A stretch of 64,000 nt of DNA from Candidatus Bathyarchaeota archaeon (GTDB lineage Archaea; Thermoproteota; Bathyarchaeia; Bathyarchaeales; Bathycorpusculaceae). This document shows positions 3,997 through 59,898 of the stretch, in pieces. The position numbers were made by a program, and so were the translations under genes. The notes beneath the pieces were generated by a model, which was not told the DNA's origin, ran no database searches, and saw only the letters and a program-made list of their open reading frames with translations. Position 1 is the first letter of the stretch. Every line of letters starts with the position of its first letter. The stretch covers positions 84,984 to 148,983 of the forward strand of contig CAVRFW010000012.1 in the NCBI GenBank assembly GCA_963720565.1, given 5' to 3'.

Positions 3997-4288
3997 TCAC
4001 CATCCTTTTCGCTAAGGTTTGCGTGTGCGATTCCGAACTATAACAGAACGGAACTTATGCATATTCCTTTTCGTTCGAGACGGGTTATCCTGGTCAATTA
4101 TGAAGTGAACAGCGCACGAAATCTCGTTTTCGATATTTTTCATATAGAACGTAGGAAAACTCCTTATTTTGAGATTCGCACGCTAATCAACTTTTTGGGA
4201 GGCAAGATATCGTTAGATTCAGCGAGATTTACCTGAACATCCAACATGGTGCTACGTTTGTTGATCTGGAAGTTTATGCTTTTTGGCG

Positions 4289-5384
4289 TTACCAATCCAT
4301 CTCTGCCTGGTAGTAGACTCTTCCGTTGCCGTATTCATAAGTAAAGGCGTAGACTGCACCGTCTTTCCATCGTGCAATGACCTGCGCCCCCTCGTTCATT
4401 GAAGCCAATGCGTAGCAGCCGTAAGCGTCAATGTGATAGACTGTGCTCTGGCTTTCAAGTGAAGTGCCTAAAGGATTGTCCATAACCAAGTTGGCTGTTC
4501 CGCCTGAATTCACAAAACGCAGCGCTGCCGAACCAGTCTTGGATTGAAGAAAGGTTTTGGCCCCCAGTCACATAAGGCCACATATCTTTGCAGTAAGTTG
4601 CGAAATAACATGGAATACCGCTGAGGATGACAACACTGCCACCGCTGTTCAAGTAGTCTCTCACAACTTGATCGTGCTTGGGTTCAACCGCGAACCAAGC
4701 TTCAAAAACTACCAAGTCGTAGCATGACAGGTCCTCTGGAACATCACCCACGCACACAACTGTGAACCCTTGCTGCTCTATGACCTTAACCATAACGTTC
4801 TTTATTTGCCCGAGTTGTCCTTCCCTCCACCAAGGACCCCAATCTGCCCCATCCGATAAGTGGTGCGCAAGGTAATTGTCATACCAGTTGATGTACAGAA
4901 CTGAATTGCCCTCTTCTGCTGCCCATCTTGCTCCTGCGCCAAACAGCGTCAAAGAAGGAGCTAAATCGTCTGCAGGTGAATGTTCCAAGTCTCGAACTAT
5001 GCTAATTTTCACTTCTAATTGGGATGCTGGGGCTGTGCTCGAAACAGAAAGCCACGCGTCAAGGATATTTTCACCTGGCTCGATTGTATAAACATTATTG
5101 CTGAATGCAACGTGTTTTTCCTGATATCCCGTGTCATTCAAACTGAAGCTCAAACAAGCATTGTAGCTAACAGAAGCGCGGTTCTCCACCGTGACGGTAA
5201 ACTCTAATGTTTCACCAGGAAAAAGGGTTAAAACAGTATCAAACGGCAAGACCTCAAGAGGCTCCTTCACCTCCAAATTGATCGTTTCTGACTGCAGAGA
5301 ACTTCCACCTGCAAATTCTAGGCTAGAAATAAAAATCACTGCAGTAAAAAGAAAACCAAAAGATGCTCGTTTATTCATAGACAT
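4289..5384 (-). CDS. Secreted hypothetical protein: Ig-like domain plus class I glutamine-amidotransferase-like domain (frameshift ~4515)
   Basis: Signal peptide; DLSCYDLVVF and DYLNSGGSVVI; C-terminal YGNGRVYY in second frame. Confidence 0.6.
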
Positions 5385-5581
5385 CGATAAATCTGATCTC
5401 AGCAGCTCTAAAAAGCGTTCTTGTAAAGGTTTCTTGACTAAAACCAGATTTTGTCAGTCAAAATTTCTTGACTAAGCACCCCTGAACGCTCGATTGTCAA
5501 TCAATAGGTCTTGGGCACGCATGACTAAACGCTTTCGTAAACGAGAGCGAGATCATATCTTGATGGAGACATTCTAAGCGC

Positions 5582-5945
5582 TCACGTGCTGTTGACTGCT
5601 GCCTTGAAGTTGTAAGATCCAATAGCTGTAATTGTGTATGTTGCACGCGCAATTCCCCCGCGATTAGTTTTCTGGGTCGCAAAATGAGTCCACTCACCGC
5701 CATTGAGTGAATAGAAGAATGCGATGTCTGATTCCGTCTCCGACAGAGTTACCGTTGATTCTGACTCTGGCTGTCAAAGAAACCTCACCGTTTCGGACCG
5801 AGGAAGATAGAGTAATTGTGAACTGCATATCTACGTGCACTACGTTGCTCGTAACCTGGAACATGCCATAAGCAGCCAAGTCGCTTCCCACTACGCAAAG
5901 CAGAAGAACAATGGCTAATAACGTTTTCATAGGCGTTTTTGGCAT
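5582..5945 (-). CDS. Small secreted Ig-like protein (frameshift ~5731)
   Basis: Signal peptide; continues in another frame as DIAFFYSLNGGEWTHFATQKTNRGGIARATYT...NST*. Confidence 0.6.
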
Positions 5946-6146
5946 GTTCTCACTTCGGGTTCTTCTTGCAGCTATTGTTCGTAACGTTAACAGAATTATG
6001 TTAATAACATAAGTGATTTATGAACTATGAATAATCATTGTTTGAAGCGTATGCAGTTTTCGCAAGAATTCTATGGCTTGTTGAATGCAAACTTTGCTGT
6101 CAGGTTTGTTTTGGTTCGAGTTAGGTGTGCGTTTTAGTTTCCAAAG

Positions 6147-6199
6147 TTCGCGCGCTGCTTTGTCCCGAAAATGGTTAAAAATGGTTATAAGTCCGATTT
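6147..6199 (+). repeat. Left inverted repeat, includes TTATAA TATA-like box
   Basis: TTCGCGCGCTG-CTTT-GTCCC-GAAAATGGTTAAAAATGGTTATAAGTCCGATTT. Confidence 0.75.
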
Positions 6200-6217
6200 G
6201 GCTAATTAGAGTCTGAA

Positions 6218-6587
6218 ATGGACTATTTTGAAAGTCGCATATTGGCCGCGCTCAAAGACGGCAAACCCCACACGTTCAGCCAAATCCAAGGACAAGTAAC
6301 CTTCAGCCACAACACCCTCCAACAGCACCTCACCCAACTCGTCGAGAAAGGCCTTGTTCTCAAAGGAGAAACACCCTCAGAAAAGCTTCGGAAGACCCAA
6401 ATACGCCTACCGTGTCCCGTCCAAGACGGCTAAGCAGGTTGCGGGTGCGCTGGAAGATCCTGGTGTGGAGTTGGTGACCATGCCGTTTAGCAGGGTTAGG
6501 CATGTTTGCAGGTTTGAGAAGGGCGGCTGGTGCAAAGAGAAGAAGGCGCAGTGTTCGCCTCAAATCTGCCCCCAAATCCGAAAATAA
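6218..6587 (+). CDS. Winged-helix DNA-binding protein with C-terminal Cys4 motif (frameshift ~6365)
   Basis: FSHNTLQQHLTQLVEKGLV helix, FGRPKYAY wing, CRFEKGGWC...CSPQIC tail. Confidence 0.8.
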
Positions 6588-6630
6588 GACTTATCACCAC
6601 TTTACACCAATAAAGGGACCAGCGCGCGAA
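6582..6630 (-). repeat. Right inverted repeat, overlaps the wHTH stop codon
   Basis: Reverse complement TTCGCGCGCTG-GTCCC-TTTATTGGTGTAAAGTGGTGATAAGTCTTATTT. Confidence 0.75.
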
Positions 6631-6881
6631 AAGCAGTTGCGTAGGTAAAGGTGACTGAGTCGCCAGCTTTTATCCAGATGCCGTTTGAGAGTTGCCGGAG
6701 GGCTTTTGTTTCACCCTGAATTGTTGCTATCGTTCTTGATGTGCCGGGATGTAACGCATTAAGAGTTAGAAAAATCTTTTTCTTGGCAGGATAGATTCAC
6801 AAGGATTGGAACCATCAAGGCACACGCACGTAAGCTTAATCTGATAGAATCGAAATCTCCACTTCTAATCAGGATGACCAA

Positions 6882-8122
6882 ATGACGCTTCAAAGCAGAA
6901 TGGGGAAAGAGTTTTCGTTCATAAAAGGCAACTATGCCATACTGGTTGTAAGCTGGATCCTGATTGATTTCGCCTCAGAAATCCCAGCGACCTACTATGC
7001 CCTGTACGTTCTCAAACTGGGAGCCACTGAGACAATACTTGGAATGATCGGGCTAGGCAGGTTTCCTTGCCTTGGCTTCGATGCAATTTCCAGGGGGATA
7101 TTTGGCAGACAAGTTCGGAAGGAAATGGCTTGTTTCTTCCATGACTTTTGGAGTAGCATTATCCTACACGCTCTACGCTATTGCACCGTCATGGGTTTTC
7201 ATCCTGATCGGGGCGGTTCTGACTAACTTTTTTAACTCGATTTACCAGCCCGCTCTGATGGCGATGATTTCAGATTCTTTGCCTTCTGAGAGACGTGGAA
7301 TGGGTTTTGGCATAATCATGTTAATAACAAGCACTTCTACCACTCCAGGCCCTTGTCGCAGCCCTCCTCTACAACCAGTTCGGAATGGAGTTGGGCATGA
7401 GAATAGCGTACGGCATTGTCGTTACCCTTTTCTTATTGCTTCAGTTCTTCGATTCCGGCTCAAGGAAACCTTCATAGACACGCCTAAGCCCTCTTGGAAA
7501 GAGTTTTTCCGCTCCTATCCCACCTCGTTGAGGGAAAGTGTGAGGGTTTGGAAGAGAGTTCCAAGTTCAATGTTCTACTTGTTTCTGACCCGGAGCGATC
7601 ATGATGTTTGGAGTTGCGGCCGTGCAGATTTATCTAGTGGTTTACGCGGTGAATGTTCTTCTGTAGATGCGACGGTATGGGCATACGTCTTGCTAGCTTT
7701 GCCTATTACAATGATAGTCTTTTCAATTCCTATTGGAAAGTTTGTAGACAAAATAAACAGGAAAATGCCCATATTGGCGTCATACGGCTTCTTCTTCTTC
7801 TCGTTGCTGTTTTTCGTAAGCGGCTGGTCTGTCTCTCTGCTTTTCCTGGCCCTAGTGTTTCTTAGGAGTTGGACTCGTCATGATGAACTCTGGATCTAGC
7901 GCCCTGCAAGCTGACCTGACACCCAAAGAAAGTCGCGGAAAAGTCCAAGGTTTCTCAAGCTTCGTTAACAACATTATGATGGCGCTGGGTGCTGTCACAG
8001 GCGGATTTCTTTATGAACATTTTTCCCCTGCAATACCCTTCTATGTTTCAATGGGACTTGTCATTCCAGCCTTTCTCCTTACGCTGGCATTGGTCCATGA
8101 GCCCAAAGACAGACAAGAGTAG
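6882..8122 (+). CDS. MFS transporter (several frameshifts)
   Basis: GYLADKFGRK motif A, ERRGMGFG, GKFVDKINRK, ESRGKVQG across overlapping ORFs. Confidence 0.88.
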
Positions 8123-8236
8123 ACACACGGAAAAGGATTTTGAAAACACGGGAATCGAAATGTTGGCTATCCCAAGTTTTATTTATATTTATTGCGTCAT
8201 TATGAATGAAGGAGAAAATGGTGTAGCGATCTCAGA

Positions 8237-9844
8237 ATGGATGCAGTCGCTGTTATTTTTGGCACTGTTGGTGGCTTTGCCATCTTCCTCTATTCATTAC
8301 GCACGTTGAGCGCCAGCGTAGAGAAATCCGCTGGCGAGAAAATTAAGCAGTCGCTTGCCAAACTAACAGGCAATCCCTTGAAAGGCTGTTTTGTAGGCGC
8401 TTTTACTGCGACGATGCTGCAAAGCAGTAGCCTAACGATGATTGTTCTTATTGGCCTGATAAATGCGGGCATTTTGACTCTGAAGCAGGGAATAGGAGTC
8501 ATGCTCGGAAGCGAAATTGGCACTACCGTGACTGCGCAGTTAATAGCGTTTAAAATTGGAGTTTTCTTTCTTCCTTTAATTGCAGTCGGATTCTTCTTGT
8601 CATCACTTGGCAAAAAGTGGAAAATACAAAAACATAGGTCAGATGATAATGAGTTTTGGCCTAATCTACTTAGGAATGGACCTAATGACTAGTAGTATTC
8701 AACCTCTTCAAAACGAGCCTGGCCTAAGCGATTTCCTATTTAATTTCGGACAATTTCCACTATACGGACTAATTGCAGGGATAGCTGTCACTGCTATGTT
8801 CCAGAGTAGTGCAGCTTTAGTGGCTTTGGTAATATCCTTGGGCATTAACAACTTAATCACCTTACCCGCGGCTATAGCTATGGTTCTTGGGGCTAACATA
8901 GGCACTTGTGTTGGCGAGTTGTTTGCAGTTATCGGGTCATCACTCGCGTCAAAAAGATTGGCTCTAGCTCAACTCATGATCAATTTGTTCGGAATTTTGT
9001 TATTCTTTCCTTTTATAGGCAACTTTTCGGGATTTCTTGAAACGTTGTCGTCTGATTTACCTAGGCAGATCGCAAATGCCCACACAATTTTCAACGTATC
9101 AGTCTCCGTAATTATGCTGCCATTAACAGGGGCTTTGGTTTCTCTCCTAGGGAGGCTCCTACCAGGAGAAGAATCTCAAATTAAAAGAGGTACCATATTC
9201 ATAGATGAAAAGCTCTTAGCTGCTCCGTCCATTGCTCTGTCTCAAGCTGAAAAAGAAATTCTTAGAATGGGAAAACTAACATGCGAGATGCTGGATAAAG
9301 CAACATCAGCTGTACAAGACAACAAGAAAGAGGCAATTGCAAAAGTGAAAGAGTTGGAAGGGATTGTGGACGAAATCTATCATGCTGTTGACAAATTCTT
9401 AGAGGATAGTCGATTTGCAAACCTGAACGAGAACGAGTTGAAGAAACTAGCTTATCTAAAGCATAGTCTAAATGATATTGAAAGAGTTGGGGATCACGCT
9501 AATAATTTAGCAGAATTGGCAGAGAAGAAAATGAAAAAAACCTTGAAGTTTTCAGCAGATGCCAAAAGCGAGTTGGCCACAATGTTTATGAAAGCAAAGA
9601 CGATTTTCGAAAAAGCTATGGTTGCCCTTGAAGGTCAGGATGAGGAAGCTGTCAAGATGGTTCGGGAACTGGAAGAGGAGATAGATCGTTTACAGAGAGT
9701 TTTTGAGGCAAACCATATTCGAAGACTAGAGAACAAGGTATGTGATCCACTAGGGGAATAATATTTGTCGATATCCTCAGAAACTTGGAACGCGTGGGTG
9801 ATCATTCAACTAATATTGCAAACTCAATTCTACTAGGGTTCTAA
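8237..9844 (+). CDS. Na+/phosphate cotransporter with PhoU domains (frameshifts ~8612, ~9755)
   Basis: Two QSSS/QSSA repeats, GSEIGTT/GANIGT, IANAHTIFN, two ERVGDH PhoU motifs. Confidence 0.92.
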
Positions 9845-9885
9845 TGCGGCATAATCCTGAATGAATGAAAAAAGCGTGCGCTCGG

Positions 9886-11212
9886 TTATTTGGATGTTGT
9901 GATTTGTACGTCTTTCATTAGGATGTATGGTGAAAGTGAGGGCGGATCAGCTTCGACCCACCAGTGAACGTGCTGGCGTTCCCTACTCACTTCTATTACG
10001 TTGTTTAGCATTTTTAGTGCGTTGTCGCTTATTCGTATGTTTTTCAGAGACTGTCTTGATTTCTCCGTTTTCTATCTGGAAGATACCGTCGCGGGGTATC
10101 GTTGAGAAATCGCCTGTGGCATGGTTTTGGAATCTTGTGTACCACGTGTTTGTCAGGTAGAGGCCGTGTTTTACCTCTTTGATGAGTTCTTCTTTGTTCA
10201 TTTCGCCAGGGTCCATTTCGAGGTTCCATGGCGTGGGGGAGACGATGCCAGCGTTGCCTGTGGTTGCGGTCTTGAAGATTTTCGCTGTGGACGTGTTGTG
10301 GAGGTAGGTTTTCAGTACACCTTTTTCGATAATCACGTTTTCGCGGGTAGGTGCTCCCTCGTCGTCGAAGACTCTGTGTGACATTGAGTAGGCACCCGGC
10401 ACATCTATCAAAGTAACGTTTTCAGACGCAACTTTTTGTCTGAGCTTGTCGACGAAGATTGATAGTTGAACCATCACGTAGTAGGCGGAGGCCATGACTC
10501 CCCACATGCCCAGCAATGAACCGAAGAACAATGGGTCGAAAACCACGTCGAATTTTCCTTCCACTCCAGGTTTTGGGTTTTTTGCTTGTCTGGCTATTTC
10601 TCCTGCTTTCTTGCCTGCTCTTGCAGCCTCAAAGCCTTTTAGTGTTGAGCCGCATTCGACTGCGTGGCCTGAGGCTTCTTTTTCGGAGAAGGCTCTGATT
10701 GAAAGTTCGACCGAGGACCTGTGGTCAGTTCCGGCTGGGCCTTCAGATGATACTTGGTAAACGTCTGAAGTGTTTGTGTAGAAGATGCCTCCGCTATTTG
10801 TTTTTGGACCGGCTTCTTTTTTGGCTGCATCGATTGCTTCGAAGACGAGTTCCGCCGGGTTATCCAGGTTGTCTATTGTTTTGTCGGCTTTGTTTTTCGG
10901 GTAGTTGAATTTTCCTCTAGCGAAACCGCCGTGAGCTGGGTTTTCTTTGGAAACTTTGGCCAATTCGAAGAGGCGTTTCAGGGTCGGGTCTACTTTTTGG
11001 AAGTTGGCTATTTGGGTGGCGACGACTCGTTTCTTCCAAGACAAGACCACATCCGTCACGTAGAAGTTCCAGGCCAGCGACGTGTCAATCTGGTTATTGC
11101 TGAATCGTACTTGACGGTTTCGGCTTGCAACTGTTTTAGCTATTACTTCTTCAGCGCCTAACGCTTTGCTTTTTTTGACGATGTTTTCGGTTTTGGATAG
11201 GATTTCGCTCAT
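9886..11212 (-). CDS. tldE: TldE/PmbA family protein (frameshift ~10048)
   Basis: Starts MSEILSK overlapping TldD stop; VRFSNNQI, FDDEGAPT, TGNAG, TGDFSTIPRDG. Confidence 0.88.
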
Positions 11213-12628
11213 TTCACGTACACTCCCCTGAGCCTTATCATGGGTCCGCCTGTATAAACGGGGATTCCTTGCATGGGATCTCCTTTTCCACATGTAGCTG
11301 CATGCGTATTCGACCTTCTCGGACACGGCGTCTACTGCACTCCAGAAAACCTGCGTGGTTGTCTCGATCACGGGTCGAGCGACGCGTCCCTTGAGTTCGC
11401 CGTTTTCGATCAGGTAGGCTTCGCGACCCACGTAGCGCTGGTTGAAGCGTATGTCGTCGATGTTCCATTCGGTGAAGGACTTCATGTAAACTCCATGCTT
11501 GACATCGTCAAATATCTCTTGTTCGTTATAGTCGCCTGGCTCCACGAAGGTGTTGGACATGCGCACTATGGCTTCCCGGTCGTACCTTGTGGATCGGGAG
11601 GAGCCGTTGCTTCTGGTTTTTAGTTTGGAAGCGCTCTCTCTGTTTTGCAGAAACTCGTTGATGACGCCGTTCTTGTAGAGGTAGCGTGGTCTGGCCTTGA
11701 TTCCTTCGTCGTCGTACTCGAAGTAGCCGTAGCTGTTCTTCACGGTTGGGTCATCAATCACGTTCACTACTGAGCTTCCGATTTTGGTGCCAAGCCAAAA
11801 AGGACCCTTTGGGTATATGAAGGACATGCCTGCTTGGCTCATTTCGCGGCCTAGTATTCTGTCAGCTTCCATCGGGTGCCCGCATGATTCATGTGCAGCT
11901 ATACCCGTAACTTCCGAGCCGCAAATGAGATCCATTTTTCCAGGTGCGACAGCCTTGGCTTCCCTGATCGTGGTCTGCAGCATCTTCGCTTCGCTAATCA
12001 TCTTCTCGGTCAATCGCCATTCCTCCAGTGCTTCCCAACCGCCTGAGTACCCGAACTGCCTGTATGATTGCTCGCACTTCCCGTTTTCCATAACCGTGAG
12101 ATATGCAAACGCGCCAACCGTGGGAAGGTAAGAGGAGATTGCGGAACCTTCAGTGTTGACAAAGTACTTTTCAATCGAACTTGTTCCGGACCTGAACATT
12201 CTTCCCGAAACGTTTACTCCCTGAGAAGTCAGCTCCTTGTCGAGTTCCGTGAATGCATCGATCCGTGTTTCAGCCTGCACATCCTCGAGCCGCGTTTTCT
12301 CCTCTACCTTCCAGCTGGCTTTCACAGCTTTTTCTTTGGCGAAGGTGATTTTGTCTTTCCGGTTTGCCGTTTTCGCCAGTCTAAGAGCGAGGTCAACGAT
12401 GCCTTCTGCCTCTTTTCTAGTCCACTTGTTAGTGGAAGCGAAGCCGATTCCGCCGTCCGCCAAGATTCGCACGCAAAAGCCACTGTCAACTGCTGAAACA
12501 TAAGCGTCTAAGACGCCGTTTTTCATGGAGAGATCTTCGCTTTTCTCGCTGTGCGCCCTAACCTCCGCGTACTCAACCGCTTTTCCTGCGGCAATGCTTA
12601 ACGCATAATCAACCAAGTCTTTGTCCAA
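11209..12628 (-). CDS. tldD: TldD family metalloprotease (frameshift ~11297)
   Basis: HESCGHPMEADR, YDDEG, VRMSNT; corrected C-terminus TCGKGDPMQGIPVYTGGP...VK*. Confidence 0.92.
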
Positions 12629-12854
12629 GTGAATTCACAGCTTCTCTTTAGCAGTAACAAGATTATAACTCTTCGCGAATCTATATTACCCGCCAGAATT
12701 CAAAACTTTTTCTCAAACTGACAAGGATTGGCTACAAAGACATGTTAGGCGCGCTGATACTATATTGTAAATGAGTTGTTGGCCATAGCGAAATTTATAT
12801 CGGGTTTCTTGCGTATTGTTTTAGCGGGGTTTGTGTCTGTGGAGGTGCGGGTGC

Positions 12855-20233: not shown

Positions 20234-20811
20234 ACTCAATCAACCTCAAGTATACATTTTGAACGCTTAAAACGATTTTGGAGCTATATTCCCGCGCGCT
20301 CTGGTTAGTGTACTGAGTTTTTTCGACGTTGCTCTTTGTGCAACTACCATTGCGTTCGATAGTTGTCTCTCCGCTTAAGTCGCACGAGTATAGCATTGTT
20401 GAAAGGTAATTTAGCGATGCTATAAAATTTCTTCACTAAAAATATGTAGCATAAATATGGTGTTAGCGAGTGCGTGTACATAAGAACGAGAATGAAGGGG
20501 TGTTCCGGGAAATGCGGGTTTCGAAGCACATGAGAGCGTTAAGTTCGAACAGGAGATCTAAGAATAGTCAAGCTTTGTGGCAATGCTTTTCGCAGACCGG
20601 GTCGGCTCTAGAAGGAATCTTGGTGTTGACACAGTTGTCTAACTGGTTTTTTTGCGGAGGAATTCATTCTTTAATGTATGTTGGGGCGGCGGATAATGAT
20701 TTCACCCCATTATTCTGGGGAACATGCATTGCTTCTGACAGCATAAGACGCGTTCAGCTTGTAGGGGAAATATCAAACAGAGTCTCTTTCAGAGACTTGA
20801 TGGAAACTGCT

Positions 20812-23683: not shown

Positions 23684-23877
23684 TATGAAAAACAGAAGTA
23701 AACTATGCGGGTTTCTTTCTGATCGTTGGTTCTGTCCTTATGGTTCATGCTGGCGCATTGAATAAATTGTATCCGTGCTAGCGTGTTAAGTTCCAAAAAC
23801 CAGTTTGAGGATTCATAAATCATTTAAATCTACAATAGAAATTGAAATCGCGCGCTACATTGCGTGGTGTTGGATTG

Positions 23878-28327: not shown

Positions 28328-28840
28328 TGGTTGACTCGCAGGTTTTCGCTTCAGCTGCTTTGCTTGCAGTAATTACGGTTTTGCTGTTGTTTCTTGCTGT
28401 TCCGCATGTGATAGATATGCAGAGTAGAAGCCTGGATGAGTGTTATGTGGGGGTGGTTAGCGCGCGTCAGCTACCGACCCCATTTGGACAATGGTAACGA
28501 AATTTGCTCTCAAATGGGGTGTCATGCAGAACGAGCACTTTGAGGCGTTGGAGAGTTTCTGGAAAGACACCACCGAACATCGCATAGATTATGGCTCTGT
28601 AGAAGGTAAGGCGGTGCTTATTTTACCCAGCAACTACGGCTGGGGAATGAGGAAACCTGACGATCACATCTGGGGATTCTGGGGGGCAGACGAGAAATCG
28701 CCTCAAATCTGGATGGTAAGCCGCGAACTCCTGACCAAGTACGGAGCGACATTAGACATTATCTTCGACGATCCAGCATTTCCAGTTTGAATCAAATTAC
28801 AGCCAAATCTACCTATGGAAACGCCACATTGCCATACTGA
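28328..28840 (+). pseudogene. Apparently internally deleted membrane-anchored hypothetical gene
   Basis: N-terminal TM segment (...AALLAVITVLLLFLAVP...CYVGVV) joined at TAGCGCGCG to a C-terminal part (EHFEALESFW...NYGWGMR...DIIFDDPAFP). Confidence 0.55.
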
Positions 28841-35812: not shown

Positions 35813-36087
35813 TTAGCCAATTCAACCTTGAAGGGCAAAAACACTTTTGGCTAATAAGCCTTCTGCAATTGCGTTGGTCGGCAACAGCGCGCGTTGGAAG
35901 TACCGGGTTAGTTCTTCAGAGATATGCATGTTTGATTTTTGAGTCTGTCATTGACCAGCGGTGTTACTGGTTTCTTGGTCAAGGCAGCGTATTACATGTG
36001 GTACCGACATGGCAACTTTTTCATTAGCGCGCTGAGAAAGTATTTAGATACTTTGAGGTGACTATTTCTAAAGAAGAAGGAGATAAT

Positions 36088-37517
36088 ATGGTCAAGGTTG
36101 TTTTTGTTGAGCCACCCAAAGACTACTGGTTTGTTATGGGTGAATACCTTCCGCCCCCCTATGGACTTCTTCAGCTCGCAGGTTATTTAGAAACGAAGAT
36201 GCCCGAAGTCGAGATCGAAGTCTTAGATTGTCAGGCCCTGTCTCTGGATTGGAAGGGTTTAGAAAGAAAGCTGGAGACTTCTGATCCTGATGTTGTTGCA
36301 ACAAGCGGTTTTGCCACGTGTAATGTGTATGTTGCTGCAAGAACCTTTGAAACCGCAAAGAAACTAAAACCAGAAGTGCTCACAGTTGCCGGAGGGCAAC
36401 ACTTCACAGCCACCGCTCAAGAAAGCCTTGAGCAGTACCCGGAAATTGACGTTGTAGTCAGGGGAGAGGGAGAAGAAACGCTAGTTCAACTGGTTAAGGC
36501 CGTAGATGAAAAAAGGGTTTTCTCTGGAATAGAGGGCGTTTCTTTCAGGAATGCGGACAGGATTCTGCACAATTCTCCTCGTTCTCTTCATCGGTAATCT
36601 GGATAATTTGCCTTTTCCAGGGTATCATTTTGTTAAGGACTACGCGCACCGTTATCATTTCGCGATGATGGCTGGCTCTGATGCGAGGTATGGAATGGTT
36701 GAGGCTTCAAGGGGATGTTCGCATCACTGCACGTTTTGTTCACAGTGGAAGCATTGGCAAGGCTCGTGTAGGCACAAATCCGTGAAACGTGTGGCCGACG
36801 AGATCGAGTTTCTCTACAACAACTACGGGAGCAGACTTCTTTGGCTTGACCGATGACAATTTTGGGTTTGGTCCGCGAATGGAGAATCTGTGTGATGAGC
36901 TGATTGGGCGTGGTTTTTCGGACGATATTACTTGTTTCATGCAGGCTCGGGTTGATGATGTTGTTCGAAATTCGCATCTTCTGCCAAAAATGAGCAGAGC
37001 AGGAATCAACTGGTTACTTCTTGGAGTGGAGAGCGGTAGCCAAAGCAATCTTGATGGTTTCCGCAAGGGCACTAAGCCTGAAGAGGCGGTTGATGCCGTA
37101 CGATTGTTGAAACAGAATGGCATATTCTCTCAAGCATCATGCATAATCGGAAACCGCCAGGACTCCAGTGATTCAATCGAGAATTTGAGGGAATTTGTCA
37201 ATGGGTTGGATCCTGACCTTGCAATTTTCATGATTCTGACGCCTTTTCCTGGAACGGACCTATATGAGGAGGCAAAACTCAAGGGTTGGATAGAGAACTG
37301 GAACTGGGCTGATTATGACATGATCCACGCCATAATGCCGACGGAATCCTTGAGCATAGAGCAGTTGCAGCATGAGCTCTACAGGTGCTATCGTGGCTTT
37401 TTCGGGTCTTGGAGCAGGGTAGCAGAAGGCTTTTTCTCGAAAAACAGCGCAAAAAGGAGAGTTTACAGATATTTTGCGCGGCAGAGTGTTCTAAGACAGT
37501 TAAAGAATCTGGTTTGA
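36088..37517 (+). CDS. B12-binding radical SAM protein (two frameshifts)
   Basis: PPYGLLQLA, VAGGQHFT, RGEGE, SRGCSHHCTFC, DDNF, GVESGS, TPFPGT. Confidence 0.92.
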
Positions 37518-37530
37518 GGATGATTGTTAC

Positions 37531-39121: not shown

Positions 39122-39611
39122 AATCTTCCATTTTCTTTTCTTAGTTCTTGCTTATTACGTTTGACTAGTATACAGTGAAGTAGTCAGAGTAGATGGTATA
39201 ACCGTGAATGTTAAGTGCTAAGCGGTAATTTTCTGAGGGCAAAGCGGTGCTAAAGCTCAAAGTCACGTTTTTTGTGAATTAGCTGGCAGAATACATACAA
39301 TAAATCGTTGCACTGAATGCCCACTCCCATCGCGCGCGCTCATATTGCAGGTACCAAATTGCCTTGCTTATGTTCTCAGGTGCCTTGTCAACGGTTTTTT
39401 CATTACTGCTGCTCATGGGTGTTCAGGTTTTCTCATCTTCGCCAAGTTTCATCGTTTTGCTTGCCATGGGTTTTACAGGTGTGGCTAACCTCATTTGCGG
39501 TTTGCTCTTGCTTGCCTCAGAATAACTGGATTTTTGAAGACTTTTCGTTTTAACCGTAGTGCGGGGTCTAGATCAGGAACAGACAAGAAGCGGGTTGGAC
39601 GCCAACTCGCT

Positions 39612-45019: not shown

Positions 45020-45379
45020 AGCTACCCGATGTGAGACTATTGGAAAATACGTTGTTCCCGTCTTGGGATCCCTAGTAGCGAAGGAGCTGGTCCAAACGTA
45101 TCATCTAACGCAGACAGAAGCCGCTGAGAAACTGGGGACCACCCAAACCGCGATAAGTCAATACGTTAATTCAAAGCGCGCAACAAAAAGCATACGAGCA
45201 ATTCGGCGACATCATGCCAAGAATTCAAGCCATGGCCATAATAAGTGCCGGAGTCCTCGCAACAAGAGAAACAGGACAACAAGAAAGAAGTCACATCGGA
45301 CTCCTGCAGACTATTCTCATCCCTTTTCAATCCGGAACCGGGCAAGAAAGGCGACGACTCTCGGATATGAACCTTGAGT
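45020..45379 (+). CDS. Archaeal XRE-type HTH regulator (frameshifted, ends approximate)
   Basis: CETIGKYVVP..., VAKELV, LTQTEAAEKLGTTQTAISQY. Confidence 0.75.
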
Positions 45380-45456
45380 TTTCCTCGCTCTTCTTAAATA
45401 ATTTTCTATCAATCTTGCAAGAAAGGTTATTAAAGGTTTTATAACACCTCTTGCAT

Positions 45457-45471
45457 CATAACAGCGTTATA
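45457..45471. promoter_or_regulatory. Palindromic operator copy 2
   Basis: CATAAC-AGC-GTTATA upstream of cysK; half-site TATAACAC at 45440. Confidence 0.6.
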
Positions 45472-45487
45472 AAGAGGCTGGTGACGG

Positions 45488-46440
45488 ATGGAGAGGATAT
45501 GTGTTCTTCTGCCCTGGAAACGATAGGAAAGACACCCCATGATTCACTTGAACAGATTAGCGGAAGGATCAAGAGCCAAGAATCGTGGCAAAGCTTGAGT
45601 CAAGAAATCCAGGAGGAAACGTGAAAGACCGAACATGCCCTCAGCATGATTGCTGAAGACAGAAAAAATGGGGATAGTTAATTCTCGCACTGTCATAATC
45701 AAACCAAGGCGGAGCAGGGCAACACTGGGATTGGCTTAGCCATGCATCACCGCGGTCAGAGGCTATCGCTTAATTTTAACCATGCCGGAAACCATGAGTC
45801 ATGAACGTCGAAACCTGCTAAAAGCCTACGGGGCAGAGCTCGTCCTCACGCCAGGTCCTGAAGGAATGAGCGGCGCCATAAAGAAAGCCGAAGAGCTAGG
45901 CAAGAGACACTCCGAAGTCTTTTGTTCCCCAACAATTCAAGAATCTGGCAAACCCTAAGGTTCACAGGGAAACAACTGGTCCTGAAATTTGGAATGACAC
46001 TGATGGAAAAGTAGACATTCTGGTCGCAGGCGTCGGGACAGGAGGTACGATAACTGGCATAGCACGAGTACATCAAACCTATTAAACCAACTTTCAGAGC
46101 AATAGCGGTTGAACCATCCAATTCGCCCGTGTTAAGTGGCGGTCAGAAAGGAGTCTCACAAAATTCAAGGCATAGGTGCAGGTTTTGTCCCTGACTGTGC
46201 TAAAACTCAATTTGGTTGATGAAGTCATAACGGTCAAGGATGACGATGCAATTGAAATGGCACGTCAACTAGCCAGAAAAGAAGGTCTGCTTGTTGGAAT
46301 TTCGGCTGGCGCTGCAACATACGCAGCATTGCAGGTATCTCGTCGTTTGGAAAATGAGAACAAAATCATAGCTCGTTATCCTTCCAGATACAGGAGAGCG
46401 TTATCTAAGTACGGCACTTTTTCAGCAGCCTGGGATATGA
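45488..46440 (+). pseudogene. cysK: Cysteine synthase A, many frameshifts (pseudogene or poorly polished)
   Basis: [60 protein letters not shown]. Confidence 0.85.
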
Positions 46441-46642
46441 GTACTGTCGTTTAGCAAGCTGTCTGTGAAGTTATTGCAGCTGAGAAGTCTACCTGACCGT
46501 AGATTATCCAAACGAGAATAATTAGACTAATCGCGCGCGACGCGAAAAATCGTCCTTCAGAGATTTGCGATAAAATACTTGTGTCGGCGAGGATTCGCTG
46601 CGACCTTCAGTTGCCTCGCCACGTTGCATCAATAAACCAATT

Positions 46643-53607: not shown

Positions 53608-53904
53608 GAATATCCGCGCAGAGTTCCATATTCATAACATCGCATGGTTGTTTCCAAATTAGTCTGCAAAGTACTTGATGCATCTCGATATGTTCAATCT
53701 TTGCGTGTTGACAGCTGCTTGAGACGTTAAAAGCATGGCAGGAACACAGTAATGAAATAGTACTTTCGCCAATCTCACCAGACTGTGCGGCCCAAGATCC
53801 GCCAAAAGCTTCAAAGTTGATGCTATACTTATTGGTTAGAACAAGGAAAACCTAACTTACTAGCAGGCACACGTTATAATGGGACGAAGGCTGTGGAAAT
53901 CAAG

Positions 53905-55119
53905 ATGATGAATGGCTCAAGAATTTCTAGGAAGACCGCATACACAGCTATTCTTGCATTGGGCATCGTGAGCATGCTAGGCGACATAGTTTATGAGTCG
54001 GGAAGAGGGATCGCTCCCGATTATCTACTTTTTCTTGGCGCCTCAGCTCTCCTAGTTGGCATAGTTAGCGGCGCGGGCGAGTTCCTAGGCTACGCTGCAA
54101 GGCTCATCAGCGGAAGCCTATCTGACAAGAGCAAAGCCTATTGGCTTTTCATCTTTGCGGGTTATGGTTTAATTCTCGCAATACCGCTCGTAGGTTTCAC
54201 ATACAGCATTGAATTAGTAGTTGTTTTGCTACTCTTGGAAAGGCTTGGCAAAGCGTTAAGGTCTCCGTCAAGAGACACGGTCGTCTCCATAGTCAGCAAA
54301 AACGTCGGTTCCGGAAAAGCGTTTGGGCTTCACGAAGCCATCGACCAGATAGGAGCGATAATTGGTCCATTAATTTTTAGCGGGGTATTATTTTTCACCG
54401 CAAATAGTTATCCTGCCGCTTTTGGAATGCTGCTAATTCCATTTGCTTTGATGGTGATAGCACTGGCTTACGCTTACAAGAGAGTAGGCAAAAGCGTAGA
54501 GTTGGAAGTTAGAAACGCAAGGGACGAGAAAGCTCCGCTTAGTCGCCGGGGATTTTGGGTCTACTGCCTAGCGGTTTTCCTGAACACTGTAGGGCTTATT
54601 CCAGTTGCTCTTATCCTCTTTTCTGGGTCTTCGATTCTTCAGCCGATGGGCCAGGCGTGGATGGCGCCTCTTCTCTACGTTGTAGTGCAGGCGGTTGATG
54701 CGCCTATGGCGTTGGTGTCTGGTCACCTGTTTGATAAGTTGGGCATGAAGATTCTTGGTCTTCCATTCGCCTTATCGGTTTTTCCTGTCTTTTTTGTGTC
54801 TTTTGGCGGTCTTGTAGGAGTTATTGGGGCATGTGTAGTGTTCGGTCTTGTGTTAGGCATGCAAGAGTCGATTTACCGTGCTGCCGTATGCGAGTTTATT
54901 CCACTGTGGAAAAGAGGAACCGCCTATGGCGTTTTTAACACGGTTTTGGGTTTGGGTACGCTGGCAAGTGGAGTAGTGTTTGGTTTCTTCATCGACAGCG
55001 GAAACTCGGCGATAGCCTTGGTCGGGTTTGCTTTGTTGCTACAAGTTAGCGCCATCATAGCCCTGAGCCGAGCAACCAAGTCTTTTCAAGCATCGAAGGA
55101 ATGTGTCAATCTAACGTAA
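53905..55119 (+). CDS. MFS transporter
   Basis: SMLGDIVYE, ERLGKALRSPSRD, FGLHEAIDQIGA, RGTAYG. Confidence 0.9.
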   Translation: MMNGSRISRKTAYTAILALGIVSMLGDIVYESGRGIAPDYLLFLGASALLVGIVSGAGEFLGYAARLISGSLSDKSKAYWLFIFAGYGLILAIPLVGFTYSIELVVVLLLLERLGKALRSPSRDTVVSIVSKNVGSGKAFGLHEAIDQIGAIIGPLIFSGVLFFTANSYPAAFGMLLIPFALMVIALAYAYKRVGKSVELEVRNARDEKAPLSRRGFWVYCLAVFLNTVGLIPVALILFSGSSILQPMGQAWMAPLLYVVVQAVDAPMALVSGHLFDKLGMKILGLPFALSVFPVFFVSFGGLVGVIGACVVFGLVLGMQESIYRAAVCEFIPLWKRGTAYGVFNTVLGLGTLASGVVFGFFIDSGNSAIALVGFALLLQVSAIIALSRATKSFQASKECVNLT

Positions 55120-55237
55120 TCCAAGCTTTTAAGGCATACATACCGCTTGGAATGTGTTCTCGCGCGCGAGTTAGTTGTGTAGAGTAAATTAAAATACTTC
55201 GAGCCTAAATGTGCCTTTTAAAGGAAGGGCGCAGCCG

Positions 55238-56503
55238 ATGGCTTTAGACGTGGTCCTGAGAGGAACAGTAACCATTTGCATCTTGGTTTTTTCAGCCAAG
55301 GTTTTGGGCGAAGTTTTCTCGTGGAGAAAAATTCCGTCGGTTTTGGGCGAGTTGCTTGCCGGAATGCTTCTTGGACCTTACGCCTTCGGTTCCCTCATAA
55401 CAATAAACGGTGTGCCTCTAATTGAGACAAACGAAATTGTCTTAGCATTCGGGGAAATCGGAGGCATACTGATCCTTTTCATAACTGGTCTGGAGATAAC
55501 GTTTAGAGATTTTCGAAAGGTCGGCAAAGCTGCTTTCACAATCGGAACAACCGGAGTTATTGTTCCCTTCATAATGGGGTACGCGCTCGCCCTTGCTTTT
55601 GGACTAAACACCATGACTGGCTTGGTAGTTGGTGCGGCACTGGTTGCTACAAGCATCTCTATCACCGCTTTGGTGCTAAGAGAAATTAATCAGGGCAGAA
55701 AACCAGAATCAAGAATGATGATCAGCGCCGCTGTGGTCGATGACGTGCTAGGACTGGCGATTTTAGGTGTCGTTGTCTCGTTCATTTCGACCTCAGCAAT
55801 TATCACTCCATTAAGCGTGATTACTGTAATTGCCACTTCTCTTGTGACATGGCTTGTTATGACAGTTTTCTCAGCGATTGTTCTTCCGAAAATAATTAAT
55901 TTCTTTTCAAAAGGAACAGAAGGAACACTTGATGCAGCAGCTACAGCGGCATGTTTTGGCGGTGCCGCGTTGGCAGCGTCTCTTGGTTTATCGCCTATTG
56001 TTGGTTCTTTTGCCGCAGGTATGGGTATTGCGAGCTCCAATATGATTGAGAAGATACGCGATTACACCGACAAAATAAGCATAATTTTCTCCCCGGTATT
56101 CTTTGCTTTGGCAGGCGCACAGTTTAACATCAGAAGCTTTTTCACTTCAGACTTGTTCTTCTACGTCTTCTTTGTAGCACTGGTTTTAGTGGCTGTTTTA
56201 AGCAAGATGGTTGGATGCGGAATCCCGGCTGCCTTCTTCTTGAAGGATCGCGCTAAGGGAGCTAAGGTAGGCTACGGAATGATATCACGGGGAGAAGTGG
56301 GACTTATAGTGGCAGGAGTTGCTATCTCGGCAGGAGCTATTTCACAAAGCACGTATGCAGCGATTTTGGGAATGATAATTGTAACCACTGGCTTGGCGCC
56401 TGTATTATTGAGAAGAGCCTGCGACAAGGAACCCCCTGAAGAAGCAACAACAGGAGAATATCCAGACGCGCCCGACTATATACCGAGCTATCCACTCGAA
56501 TAA
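55238..56503 (+). CDS. CPA2 cation:proton antiporter
   Basis: GELLAGMLLGP, ATSISIT, AAVVDDVLG, GMISRGEV. Confidence 0.92.
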   Translation: MALDVVLRGTVTICILVFSAKVLGEVFSWRKIPSVLGELLAGMLLGPYAFGSLITINGVPLIETNEIVLAFGEIGGILILFITGLEITFRDFRKVGKAAFTIGTTGVIVPFIMGYALALAFGLNTMTGLVVGAALVATSISITALVLREINQGRKPESRMMISAAVVDDVLGLAILGVVVSFISTSAIITPLSVITVIATSLVTWLVMTVFSAIVLPKIINFFSKGTEGTLDAAATAACFGGAALAASLGLSPIVGSFAAGMGIASSNMIEKIRDYTDKISIIFSPVFFALAGAQFNIRSFFTSDLFFYVFFVALVLVAVLSKMVGCGIPAAFFLKDRAKGAKVGYGMISRGEVGLIVAGVAISAGAISQSTYAAILGMIIVTTGLAPVLLRRACDKEPPEEATTGEYPDAPDYIPSYPLE

Positions 56504-56629
56504 GTGCGCGCTGCAGCTATTATTATCATAAAAAACTATAGAAAATTCAATTTATTATTGGAATTACGATTTGTTATCCTTATAGGCGAATTTTTATATC
56601 AGATCCGCCCTAATCATTTTGAGGAAGTC

Positions 56630-56914
56630 TTCACGCCAATAAGAGAGTTAACAGTTTCTGGTTCTGACGCGGTAAAAGTGGCTGATGCGCTTAATTCAAC
56701 AACGTATAGAATATTACAGCTGGTTTCTAAAGAGCCACTTGATGTTTCAACAATAGCAGAGAAGCTGGACATTAGTGAAGCTTATGTGAGTGAACAGATT
56801 CGCGGACTAGAAGACTTGAAGCTAATCCAAATCAGCTACGGTCGAGGCAAAAGAGGCATTAGAAAAATAAGCAAGCTAGCATTCGACAGAGTAACAATAG
56901 TCATTAAGCCTTAA
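56630..56914 (+). CDS. ArsR-like HTH regulator (start uncertain)
   Basis: ADALNSTTYRIL, STIAEKLDISEAYVSEQIRGLEDLKLI. Confidence 0.8.
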   Translation, partial: FTPIRELTVSGSDAVKVADALNSTTYRILQLVSKEPLDVSTIAEKLDISEAYVSEQIRGLEDLKLIQISYGRGKRGIRKISKLAFDRVTIVIKP

Positions 56915-57086
56915 TCAGAACTCTTACCGTGCGTCAACAACTTTTCCTTCTGTACATTTTTGGGCGCGCTGCGCCGTTTCTTCTTTGATTTCTTCTTGCT
57001 TTTGCAATATCGCCTAACCTTATCCACAATATATATAGATAAAAACTTATAAATATTGGGAGATTACTATAGTATAATATCGCGCA

Positions 57087-57161
57087 TAGCGCACGCTGAA
57101 TTGACAACAACGGAACTCCACTTCGGGGGGGAAAATAAGAAGCGGGGAGAGGCGAGCGCTA
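57087..57161 (+). ncRNA. Candidate structured 5' leader of the KamA-family gene
   Basis: 10-bp outer stem (9/10 paired) enclosing a C(UUCG)G hairpin, downstream of TTATAAATA. Confidence 0.3.
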
Positions 57162-57192
57162 ACACAATTATTGAATAAACGGAGGTTCTCGT

Positions 57193-58347
57193 ATGCCAGA
57201 GCATAAAACATTAGAGAAATGTCTAGTGAGTGTCAAACAACTGCTAAGGCATGCAAACCTATCTCCGAATGAAGCAAAAAGGCTAGAAGAAATAGTTCAA
57301 GTCCATCCTATGCGCATAAGCCCTTATTATCTTTCACTTGTCGACTGGAACGACCCCGATGATCCCATAAGGAGGATGGCTGTGCCTTCTGATGAAGAAT
57401 TGAACCTTGAAGGATTTTATGATACAAGCGGCGAAGCTGAAAACACTAAAGTGCATGGACTCCAACACAAGTATTCTGAAACCGCTTTGATATTGGTCAC
57501 AAACAGATGCGCCATGTACTGTAGGCATTGCTTTAGAAAACGTCTTGTTGGTCTTCAGACTGAGGAAATACTTAGACATTTTGAAGAAGCAGTTGACTAC
57601 ATTGCAGAGCATAAGGAAATAAACAATGTTCTAATTAGCGGCGGAGATCCGCTTGTGCTCAAGAACGAAATCATCGAAAGGTTTCTTGAGAAGCTGGAGA
57701 AAATAGATCATATTAATTTCATCAGAATCGGAAGCAGGGTTCCCGTTACTCTTCCAGATAGGCTTTCTGACAAGAAACTTCTGGCTATTTTCCGAAAATA
57801 CTCACGAAGCAATAAGAGGCTGTACGTGGTGACTCATTTCAATCATCCGCGGGAAATAACACCTCAATCCACTCAAGCCGTGAGTAATCTGCTCAAGGCA
57901 GGTGTTTTAGTTAGCAACCAGACGGTTCTGCTCAGAGGAGTCAATGATAATCCTCATACACTCGCAACGTTGATGAATAAGCTTGTGAGTATTGGCGTGG
58001 CACCTTACTATGTTTTTCAGTGCCGCCCTGTGAAAAGGGTTAAGCATCATTTTCAGATTCCCATTTGTGAAGGGGTGCGGATAGTGGAGAAGGCGAAAGC
58101 AGAGTGCAATGGTCTTAGTAAACGTTTCAAGTATATTATGTCGCATAAAACTGGAAAGATAGAGATAATTGGCATAATGGACGGGGAGGTTTACTTTAAG
58201 TATCATGAAGCAAGAGACAGGGAAAACTTGGGCGTCATGTTCAAGCGTTATGCAGATGAAGAGGCAGGTTGGCTGGATGACTTCAAAGACATAGAATGGT
58301 CTCCTATCGTAAAATCTGAAATTTTGTTTTCGCTAGCAGATTCGTAA
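57193..58347 (+). CDS. KamA-family radical SAM aminomutase
   Basis: DPIRR, GLQHKY, CAMYCRHCFRKR, SGGDPL, THFNHPRE, NQTVLLRGVND, GKIEI. Confidence 0.92.
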   Translation: MPEHKTLEKCLVSVKQLLRHANLSPNEAKRLEEIVQVHPMRISPYYLSLVDWNDPDDPIRRMAVPSDEELNLEGFYDTSGEAENTKVHGLQHKYSETALILVTNRCAMYCRHCFRKRLVGLQTEEILRHFEEAVDYIAEHKEINNVLISGGDPLVLKNEIIERFLEKLEKIDHINFIRIGSRVPVTLPDRLSDKKLLAIFRKYSRSNKRLYVVTHFNHPREITPQSTQAVSNLLKAGVLVSNQTVLLRGVNDNPHTLATLMNKLVSIGVAPYYVFQCRPVKRVKHHFQIPICEGVRIVEKAKAECNGLSKRFKYIMSHKTGKIEIIGIMDGEVYFKYHEARDRENLGVMFKRYADEEAGWLDDFKDIEWSPIVKSEILFSLADS

Positions 58348-58634
58348 CAGCTTTCGCCGCGAAGAAATACTTTTAGCCTCTAGACTTATGACAACCCTTC
58401 CTTTTTTCTCGTTCTTCTAAATTGCGCGTTTGCTCGGTTTTTTCGAGACCGCCCTCGATGATTCTGTAATCAGGTTCCACGTTGGGTCTTTGCGTGGGTT
58501 CGTTTAGTCTCGATGATGTGAATCTACACAATTATGTTTTGTCGTCTAGCCAGTTTAGAACAACAGTGCGCTTGTGTTTTCCTATGGGAAAGAATATTAG
58601 TTGAAAATGACAACAAATTATTGAAGCGATTACT

Positions 58635-58949
58635 GTGAATGATGAAACAAGTCGTGCTTATGTGCTCGTGACAATTCAGCCGGGGAAGGAGCAGGAGTTT
58701 GCCAACGAGATTTTGTCTAGGGGGTTGCTTTTTAATTCAAAAGTTGACAGGTTAGACTTCGTCCATGGCACGTTCGATTTTATTGTTTTGCTTTCCGGAA
58801 AAACACGCGATATAGATAGCCTAATAATACAAATGAGAAGGCTCCCTTATGTTCGAAAGACGGATACGCTTATCCCGTTTGAAATGCTCAGCTGGGAAGA
58901 TGTATCCTCGACCTCTGAGGAATCTCGATCTGCAAAATCCAGTACTTGA
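58635..58949 (+). CDS. Stand-alone Lrp/AsnC ligand-binding (RAM) domain
   Basis: AYVLVTIQPGKE, VHGTFDFIV, VRKTDTLI. Confidence 0.8.
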   Translation: MNDETSRAYVLVTIQPGKEQEFANEILSRGLLFNSKVDRLDFVHGTFDFIVLLSGKTRDIDSLIIQMRRLPYVRKTDTLIPFEMLSWEDVSSTSEESRSAKSST

Positions 58950-59050
58950 CCTTGATGACTCGTGAGATAGACAAGTGTGGCAAATCATCTGTAAGGATTA
59001 ATGGTGGCAATACAGTATGTATTTAACGTTGAAGAATCGTGAGGATTCGT

Positions 59051-59824
59051 ATGAGCAGTGGAAGTAACCGTATCTTCGTGCTGGTGACAATTCAGCCAGG
59101 AAAAGAGCAAGATTTCGTTTACGAAACAGGATCAGACGAGTTGATACTTAACTCTAAAGTTGACGATATGGTCTTCGTTCACGGCGCGTTTGACTTCCTT
59201 GTTAGCCTCTCCGGAAACACATACGACATAGACCGAAGAATAATTAACATGAGAAAACTGCCTTATGTGATAAGTACCGAAACACTGATTCCTTTCAAAT
59301 GGGAAATTCCACAAAAACCGCTCAAACCACTAAATGTTCCAGCGCCAGTTCCCGCTGCTTTGCCAAATTTTGAACTGAAAACTTACGGCGAAAAACCTAT
59401 TGTCCTCTACTCAACCAGAGGAGGGAACACGAAGAAAGTCGCGGAAGAAATTGCCTGCGAATTGAACTGCCCTATTAGAGAGGTAACCAAGGATTTCGAC
59501 TCTTCCTCCTTTAACCTGAACGAGTTTGACTTGGTACTAATTGGAACGGGAATTTATCAGGACCACCCAAACGAAAACATAATTCGCTTTCTTCGGTCAG
59601 CTGAGCTAGGCAATCAACAATTCGCCCTTTTCATGACTTGGCTTAGGCTCAGGACAGGCGACAAGGATATCTTCAACAAAATAGACCGACTTCTAGAGAG
59701 AAAAGGGAGAAAACTGCTCGAAAACTACTTTGAATGTTTCGGAGATCACTCAAACAAACATCCTAACAACCTGGAACTTGATGCCGCTAGAAAATGGGCT
59801 CGAAACATTGGCAAAAAAGCCTAA
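59051..59824 (+). CDS. Lrp/AsnC RAM domain fused to a flavodoxin-like domain
   Basis: VLVTIQPGKE...ISTETLI then VLYSTRGGNTKKVAE, DLVLIGTGIY. Confidence 0.8.
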   Translation: MSSGSNRIFVLVTIQPGKEQDFVYETGSDELILNSKVDDMVFVHGAFDFLVSLSGNTYDIDRRIINMRKLPYVISTETLIPFKWEIPQKPLKPLNVPAPVPAALPNFELKTYGEKPIVLYSTRGGNTKKVAEEIACELNCPIREVTKDFDSSSFNLNEFDLVLIGTGIYQDHPNENIIRFLRSAELGNQQFALFMTWLRLRTGDKDIFNKIDRLLERKGRKLLENYFECFGDHSNKHPNNLELDAARKWARNIGKKA

Positions 59825-59898
59825 CATCACCTTGCTTAGCATAAATTAGAGCACAAGCGCGCAAGTAGAAACGCCTCCGGTAGCCCTTTTCTTTCTGA

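Follow-up and report, generated by a model that had tools for sequence, protein, structure and literature searches.

Short palindromes that are abundant and are used by insertion sequences (ISs) are familiar from the REP/BIME and HIP1-type repeats, and the filler or N-nucleotides left by TdT, Pol theta and LigD are a familiar mark of end joining. Here we describe short alternating G/C runs, hereafter (GC)n runs, that lie mainly between the genes of a Candidatus Bathyarchaeota archaeon and that invite comparison with both. The stretch of DNA that we analyzed (the window) is 64,000 nt long (G000:C12:84984-148983) and belongs to a genome of 2.09 Mb in 13 contigs with ∼45% GC. Unlike REP/BIME and HIP1 repeats, the runs have no arms or stem-loop, vary in length and sit at breakpoints; they are scarce in syntenic spacers (background density) and are not enriched in genes. 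Like Ku-LigD nonhomologous end joining (NHEJ), TdT or Pol theta filler and archaeal microhomology-mediated end joining (MMEJ), they involve extra bases or microhomology at the joints of deletions and captured fragments; however, in the present case the filler is a single, fixed dinucleotide repeat that tracks neither Ku nor LigD. Recombination sites of the dif/attC type have binding arms around a core, whereas the runs show no flank consensus. MMEJ has been demonstrated in Haloferax, according to the accessible part of the report (PMC12281630). Since GC6 and GC8 are generally under-represented in prokaryotes, as stated in the accessible part of another report (PMC4060949), the 26-fold excess found here, which is far greater in one relative (G116), is itself unusual.

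A second comparison concerns a transposon that lands on the runs. It resembles the IS5 and IS1182 families and their MITEs (miniature transposable elements with inverted repeats) in domain order, a length of 1.05-1.3 kb, inverted repeats, target duplication and non-autonomous derivatives, and the nearest annotated plasmid genes, with 27-29% identity to the Bathyarchaeia clade, are labeled "IS5 family transposase." The clade differs from these families in scoring below the NCBIfam cut-offs, in a near-strict GCGCGC target held across three repeat subfamilies and in one derivative that carries a winged-helix passenger gene. The ISH1/ISH9 group is of similar size: the haloarchaeal ISH1 has 1,122 bp and an 8-bp duplication, non-repetitive in the example given in the accessible part of its description (PMC7002104), whereas the duplication here is 6 bp of (GC)3. 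IS movement has been tied to deletions, and possibly to existing breaks, in what is accessible of a further paper (PMC11708052). Our literature search, with most subscription papers and ISfinder outside its scope, returned no paper on (GC)n joints or GCGCGC-targeting ISs in Bathyarchaeia. The search covered, among others, PMC12699852, PMC12776410 and PMC10969869, and the accessible main text of PMC13343696, the supplements of which may list these elements, does not mention Bathyarchaeia. How archaea that lack Ku mend breaks and acquire unrelated genes is largely an open question, and our findings point to a little-understood route of genome rearrangement in the archaea studied here.

GCGCGC is gained in spacers as part of a (GC)n run

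An earlier note, made from the letters of the window alone, had listed GCGCGC at 14 non-coding and 3 coding positions together with nine one-mismatch sites in spacers, and had claimed that the motif is concentrated between genes. All of the exact coordinates were correct and the nine near matches are present; two sites, at 45176 and (overlapping another) at 39334, had been overlooked, which brings the window total to 19. The concentration is real, as 15 of the 19 sites are non-coding against 4.2 expected (22.8 kb, first-order Markov model). The site at 56506 was scored as coding only through its overlap with a predicted GTG start 3 nt past a stop codon; our gene calls come from our own codon model, the coding masks are approximate and many genes are frameshifted. 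Genome-wide, we counted 289 GCGCGC sites in spacers and 176 in genes, i.e., 6.1 vs 1.1 per 10 kb (5.5-fold), and the top intergenic 6-, 7- and 8-mers were all (GC)n under both first- and second-order models. For instance, GCGCGCGC was observed 142 times against 12.3 expected (order 2, both strands). Among dinucleotide repeats of 8 nt, GC and CG were enriched 26.5- and 17.7-fold and every other repeat 0.9-3.4-fold. When synonymous codons were shuffled, genic GCGCGC matched expectation (148 vs 140.5 ± 9.0). Because genes show no depletion, the excess is a gain in spacers, and there is no sign of restriction-site avoidance at GCGCGC. Compared with the same shuffle, the coding DNA of this genome is short of GGGCCC (0.24x), GCCGGC (0.60x) and GCTAGC (0.62x), which suggests past avoidance of these three as restriction sites.

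The word AGCGCRC(G) proposed in the note did not prove to be fixed. What recurs is an alternating G/C run of 6-11 nt, (GC)3-5, and A is indeed favored at the base just outside it (58%), the sole flank signal. Similarly, the one-mismatch sites exist, and their enrichment (1.2-1.5-fold) is clear only where purine-pyrimidine alternation is kept; run variants are mostly transitions, the pattern expected of decaying sequence. We found no palindromic extension, complementarity or stem-loop beyond the run and no conserved flanking arms, and the lack of complementarity past the run rules out a cruciform or P-nucleotide model. Runs occur in spacers of every orientation (3.7 per 10 kb in convergent, 5.2 in divergent and 4.8 in tandem ones) and at variable distance from start codons. 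This rules out a promoter element, as the note had anticipated. In the genome as a whole, the runs are concentrated where coding density is low and paralogues are many.

Homology and gene order break at the runs

The analysis covered 35 metagenome loci, four of which are close strains of the window (93-95% DNA identity), 400-kb samples of each of two relatives (G002 and G003), a 420-kb sample of G116 (run flanks) and, for gene searches, a panel of 41 related genomes; class-wide counts are over 301 Bathyarchaeia genomes, and some genomes are incomplete. Runs sit where homology and gene order break and flush against cut coding sequence. With IS loci excluded, a homologue stopped at the run on 23 of 36 run sides vs 54 of 240 control sides, the sides not being independent of each other. 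Of 232 ends of self-homology in the spacers of the genome, 23 lay near a run (-12 to +15 nt), where a control with matched gene-edge distances gave 3.9 ± 2.0; once IS loci were removed, the values were 16 of 219 and 3.3 ± 1.7, respectively. Over all sequence compared, a homologue ended at most 20 nt away at 129 of 670 runs of at least 7 nt. Synteny breaks, on which the earlier note had staked its proposal, also coincide with the runs: spacers whose gene order is kept in G002/G003 hold 4 runs in 30.3 kb and broken spacers 65 in 140.5 kb, and run-bearing spacers number 4 of 112 and 43 of 248, respectively (rate test, p = 0.0035).

Most joints are one-sided, such that a run follows the cut end of one copy and the other copy reads on with no run. 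Many of them cut through genes and do not fall between genes, and several fragments are bracketed by runs. Homologues that themselves have no run ended flush with the run on 24 of 74 sides, and at 13 of these 24 ends the next base of the parent fits the run, a microhomology of 1-2 nt of G/C (p = 7e-4). At eight runs, the homologues of both sides are run-free; in one of these cases, only local divergence is the probable cause. Three further runs combine a run-free homologue on one side with mixed homologues on the other, including a transposase remnant joined to a promoter fragment (C4:26741). Flush or near-flush joints were also found where the transposase had no match, namely in genus g27 and in G116 (2 of 20 self-homology pairs).

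The clearest two-sided case (L045:7448) comes from a strain, L045, that is 93% identical to the window. Its homology to the window ends at 55078, within an MFS gene and flush against a (GC)4 run, the far side of which is the interior of a CPA2 gene; neither parent sequence has a run there. Judged from these alignments, the run at the joint appears to have been written between the two coding ends. In two other strains, L031 and L046, homology is lost at 56502 and 56496, i.e., 4 and 10 nt ahead of the run at 56506.

The earlier note had inferred a recombination or insertion target that lets genes move as cassettes. The target and cassette-junction part of this idea is supported, in that the runs lie at breaks of homology and synteny and are duplicated by an IS clade. 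A dedicated system of cassettes is not indicated, as the runs lack conserved arms and many joints cut through genes. Tyrosine recombinases were considered and gave 3 matches in the genome, yet the runs lack arm-like flanks. An integrated element at C5:25670-29306 holds a 478-aa tyrosine recombinase and a 336-aa protein that has no annotation but shows a P-loop-like motif.

A clade of transposases inserts at GCGCGC

One pair of runs in the window borders a non-autonomous transposon (Table 1), the right terminal repeat of which has a short deletion near its tip. This element shares its ends with an autonomous IS, has a target duplication, lacks a transposase and is multicopy, and is hence a MITE. 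Its passenger protein has a fold like that of MarR/ArsR/PadR regulators and a near-invariant length over its homologues. Through binding to the motif that recurs in the element ends, the protein may control the IS or help it. We rejected a Z-alpha-like (GC)n binder, since both Pfam and fold matches are of the MarR/ArsR/PadR type with no Z-alpha among the matches listed. The gene is present in only 7 of 41 genomes. When loci were collected by protein search alone, 8 of 16 had runs at both ends and unrelated outer flanks, and the other 8 were truncated, degenerate or at a contig edge.

The pattern of the element ends occurs 67 times in one relative (G021) and is present in 36 of the 301 genomes of the class. 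End pairs spaced 1.05-1.3 kb apart enclose a transposase of ∼335 aa with 1840 homologues, forming an IS5/IS1182-like Bathyarchaeia clade. Its DUF772 and DDE_Tnp_1 domains, RNase H-like fold, inverted repeats and target duplication are those of an IS5/IS1182-type DDE transposase. Membership in either family proper was not borne out, as 3 of 3 proteins scored below every NCBIfam cut-off (96 of 270 bits for IS1182, 77 of 140 for IS5_4). A sequence search against solved structures gave no meaningful match. By structure, the top match was the TTAA-specific piggyBac (E 8.8e-6, TM 0.44), which likewise has a palindromic fixed target; it differs in that identity is 12%, that the present clade is prokaryotic and that a target of period 2 permits out-of-register rejoining. 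The terminal repeat presumably resembles that of ISH1/ISH9.

To define the elements, we fixed the inner four target bases and left positions -5 and -6 free. Among 67 paired-end elements, a direct repeat of 6 bp was found in 43, of 4 bp in 56 and of 8 bp in 4, and the free positions were 95% C (-5) and 87% G (-6). Two elements (L255 and L142) repeat an asymmetric hexamer and hence show a true duplication; one (L132) is compatible with a 4-bp duplication only. Two more end subfamilies, with transposases 27-45% identical to the first, share the GCGCGC target. Moreover, the base that precedes GCGCGC in spacers on the 5′ side (A.36, C.42, G.09, T.12) agrees with the flank of the IS target (A.44, C.38, G.08, T.10). 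Insertion of this transposase clade and its MITEs at GCGCGC with a 6-bp duplication is well supported. The feature is real, and its IS part represents a variant of known IS types. The genome of the window has one full-length IS, with a single stop (C9:335352-336617), and a remnant at C4:26647. With its compact size and near-strict target, the archaeal transposase clade is a possible tool for genetically intractable archaea.

Origin of the runs

The best explanation of the runs is that they mark joins and serve as hubs for renewed joining; they are not promoters. In particular, we give an even chance to a reading in which host end joining writes or re-uses self-complementary (GC)n ends and the transposon exploits the scars as safe landing sites. 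Broken ends would carry or receive a short (GC)n tail. Because such tails are self-complementary and have a period of 2, any two of them could pair whatever the register; an untailed end could join through 1-2 nt of G/C microhomology, and fill-in and ligation would leave a run of 6-14 nt. Joints in essential DNA would be purged, so that runs accumulate in spacers and accessory regions. The writer would be a patchily distributed host function, since many run-rich genomes have no such transposase, and the IS clade would have come, by evolution, to target the scars as marks of dispensable DNA. IS duplications and excisions would then add further runs. Of this account, the joints and the target of the IS are observed; tailing, the enzyme behind it and the sequence of events are inferred. 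The broader proposal, that many Bathyarchaeia have a Ku-independent end joining in which a host enzyme adds the (GC)n tail as a universal sticky end, foreign genes are captured without homology and the IS clade lands on the scars, is put forward tentatively and at somewhat less than even confidence. If true, the writing of scars would be a pathway of a categorically new kind. By means of a fixed, countable scar, joining events could be dated and mapped in one of the most abundant groups of sediment archaea, and a comparison of run-rich and run-poor genomes could then lead to the responsible enzyme.

That the transposon alone made the runs is a doubtful alternative, though the likeliest of those considered. 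Here, after a staggered cut in GCGCGC, excised donor ends with (GC)3 on each side would rejoin; rejoining out of register would give longer runs, one-sided resection flush deletions and captured DNA bracketed fragments, and orphan runs would be the footprints of lost elements. This agrees with the 6-bp target duplication, with the broken full-length IS of this genome and remnants cut off at runs, with the MITEs truncated at new runs in G021 alongside its 67 element ends, and with a fold nearest to the piggyBac and Tn5 transposases. It also agrees with genus g17, where two element-bearing genomes hold 44 and 46 GCGCGCGC vs 0-12 in the other 12. However, a target duplication needs a pre-existing run, and an element end abuts just 10 of 260 non-core runs (strict scan, which the degenerate end at 6622 escapes). 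The trait is also patchy across the class, with GCGCGCGC in 265 of 301 genomes and a range of 0-601. Of the 46 run-richest genomes (at least 40 per Mb), 24 have no transposase match, and the run-poor G005, G007, G008, G020 and G029 carry the transposase.

The run-richest genome, G116, offers the best case in which to look for a writer enzyme. It is a single contig of ∼39% GC, 86% complete by markers, with 601 GCGCGCGC and no match to the transposase profile or to DUF772, other transposase families not having been scanned genome-wide. In its sample, the flanks of 121 non-coding runs are unrelated save for one 21-nt match, and the pattern is TA(GC)nTA. If variants are assumed to arise by decay, per-base decay of the runs is ∼13% in G116, 5% in the IS-active G021 and 27% in the genome of the window. 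The G116 runs therefore look young, in which case an IS that had made them should still be visible. DDE transposases of another run-bearing relative, G018, were rejected as a source of its runs (3 matches, at loci without runs). In five loci of genus g27 (L352, L353, L355, L356 and L358), we also observed ATGCAT-type palindrome repeats beside a small repeated element and (GC)n runs; this alternating purine-pyrimidine repeat is possibly a second type of target or scar.

Less probable still is a pre-existing site, i.e., a (GC)n sequence that a host protein (nucleoid protein, recombinase or nuclease) binds or cuts and that is kept by selection, acts as a hub of breaks and recombination and is carried into joints without ever being newly written. 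Such a site would explain why some runs are common to species or strains with homology diverging right after them (C9:329976 and C9:331908 with G002; 55161 in three strains), why a coding GCGCGC served as a breakpoint in L045 and why TA or A is favored just outside the run. A site that is cut should be depleted in genes, and it is not. Moreover, syntenic spacers hold runs at background density only, run length varies from 6 to 14 nt with variants that are mostly transitions, and flanking arms were not found.

We consider a regulatory or Z-DNA element acting on transcription to be very improbable. Runs do avoid the 50 nt before starts and are somewhat commoner 60-140 nt upstream of starts and 10-50 nt past stops, and their variants retain purine-pyrimidine alternation. 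On the other hand, convergent spacers are equally dense, and in G116 the densest; conserved spacers rarely have runs; and 6-10 bp is short for stable Z-DNA. The Z-DNA idea of the earlier note is further weakened by gyrase, which does not track the runs: only 5 of 301 genomes gave a match, all run-poor and 4 belonging to a single genus, and gyrase was not found in any run-rich genome or in the genome of the window. Lastly, ordinary microsatellite slippage is scarcely credible and largely refuted: run lengths are variable as it predicts, but GC/CG repeats alone are enriched, in-place expansion was not seen and the joints are left unexplained.

Several results weigh against (GC)n ends being written by the host. 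The synteny effect is non-significant inside single spacer length classes, and when DNA was compared from the runs of the window's genome only, the excess was small in the G002 sample (4 of 94 ends, 1.4 expected) and absent in that of G003 (0 of 70, 1.0 expected). In-place insertion of (GC)n was seen in none of 20 colinear homologues (20 of 672 runs had one), and the joint test in genus g27 gave p = 0.42 when only spacer DNA was eligible. New sequence between run-free ends, the mark of a filler scar, may be present in the eight two-sided cases, but the best of these also fits sequential re-use of an old run. In L045, the window run lies only 83 nt from the joint, two successive deletions ending at that old run fit equally well, and the CPA2 fragment that was captured has its end at a GCGCGC already present in the strain's own gene. 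Run counts correlate with the presence of the transposase: in family f1, median runs are 33 per Mb in 8 IS-bearing genomes vs 3 in 41 others, and the transposase is found in 22 of 46 run-rich genomes vs 55 of 255 others, with GC content and kinship not controlled.

The candidate writers belong to the same side of the account, as none of them tracks the runs in the genomes searched. The genome of the window has a LigD Pol-Ku-ligase operon (C3:158752-162586), which is unusual for archaea. Ku occurs in all 5 genomes of its genus, and Ku and LigD Pol (over cut-off) are each found in 8 of 41 genomes, the same ones for both. Ku/LigD is nevertheless present in the run-poor G040, G010 and G020 and has no match in G018, G021 and G030; GCGCGCGC counts are 1 in G040, which has Ku, vs 227 and 439 in G018 and G021, which have no Ku match. 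An orphan PriS-like gene has strong matches in 14 of 41 genomes but none in the run-richest. Dpo4 is found in 4 of 5 tested genomes including both run-poor ones, with no match in G116, and reverse transcriptase in 0 of 5 genomes searched. Regarding gene arrangement, the NHEJ operon reads LigD polymerase, Ku, a ligase fused to a shortened phosphoesterase domain and then DUF72, and the PriS-like gene (C5:40625-41410) is stand-alone and encodes 261 aa.

Features of the window

Table 1. Runs, transposon and joints in the window (positions are those of the window)
Feature	Position	Strand	Remarks
(GC)n run	6149..6155		Holds the left copy (6150-6155) of the 6-bp target repeat that borders the non-autonomous transposon
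Non-autonomous element, 466 bp	6156..6621	+	Terminal inverted repeats imperfect, of the type found in the autonomous IS
Passenger gene	6218..6587	+	Winged-helix protein of 122 aa, Cys cluster at the C-terminus, 108 homologues; frameshift near 6380
(GC)n run	6622..6628		Right copy of the target duplication (6622-6627)
Orphan run	12749..12754		Upstream of the tldD-pmbA fusion gene
Orphan run	20293..20299		
Orphan run	23849..23855		
Orphan run	28460..28466		
Orphan run pair	35887..36032 (35887-35893, 36027-36032)		Gene order of the spacer broken in G002
Orphan run, 9 nt	39331..39339		Gene order of the spacer broken in G003
Run overlooked by the earlier note	45176..45181		
Orphan run, 8 nt	46532..46539		Joints in contigs of three sequencing runs, ∼100 nt away or nearer
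Polymorphic joint	55078..55168		Includes run 55161-55168, common to strains L023 and L046
Run just past the CPA2 stop codon	56506..56511		Missing in strains L031 and L046
Orphan run	56964..56969		Also in strain L023; spacer broken in G003
Orphan run	59857..59862		Convergent spacer

Among the 15 joints listed of 33, those of three contigs lie near the run at 46532, two of them at most 2 nt away; this is a weak hint, since the contigs come from relatives and show 82% likeness. The genes of the window are archaeal, and two named relatives of one window protein are metagenome-assembled genomes of Bathyarchaeia. A scan of the window for structured RNA or tRNA found none. Frameshifted genes are numerous across the window (e.g., 7072-8692, 36058-37517 and 45063-46454), and single-base insertions or deletions relative to relatives' contigs from several sequencing runs suggest assembly errors or recent decay. 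Lastly, the minus-strand gene at 9983-12628 encodes an 881-aa protein that has two TldD/PmbA-type halves on a single chain.

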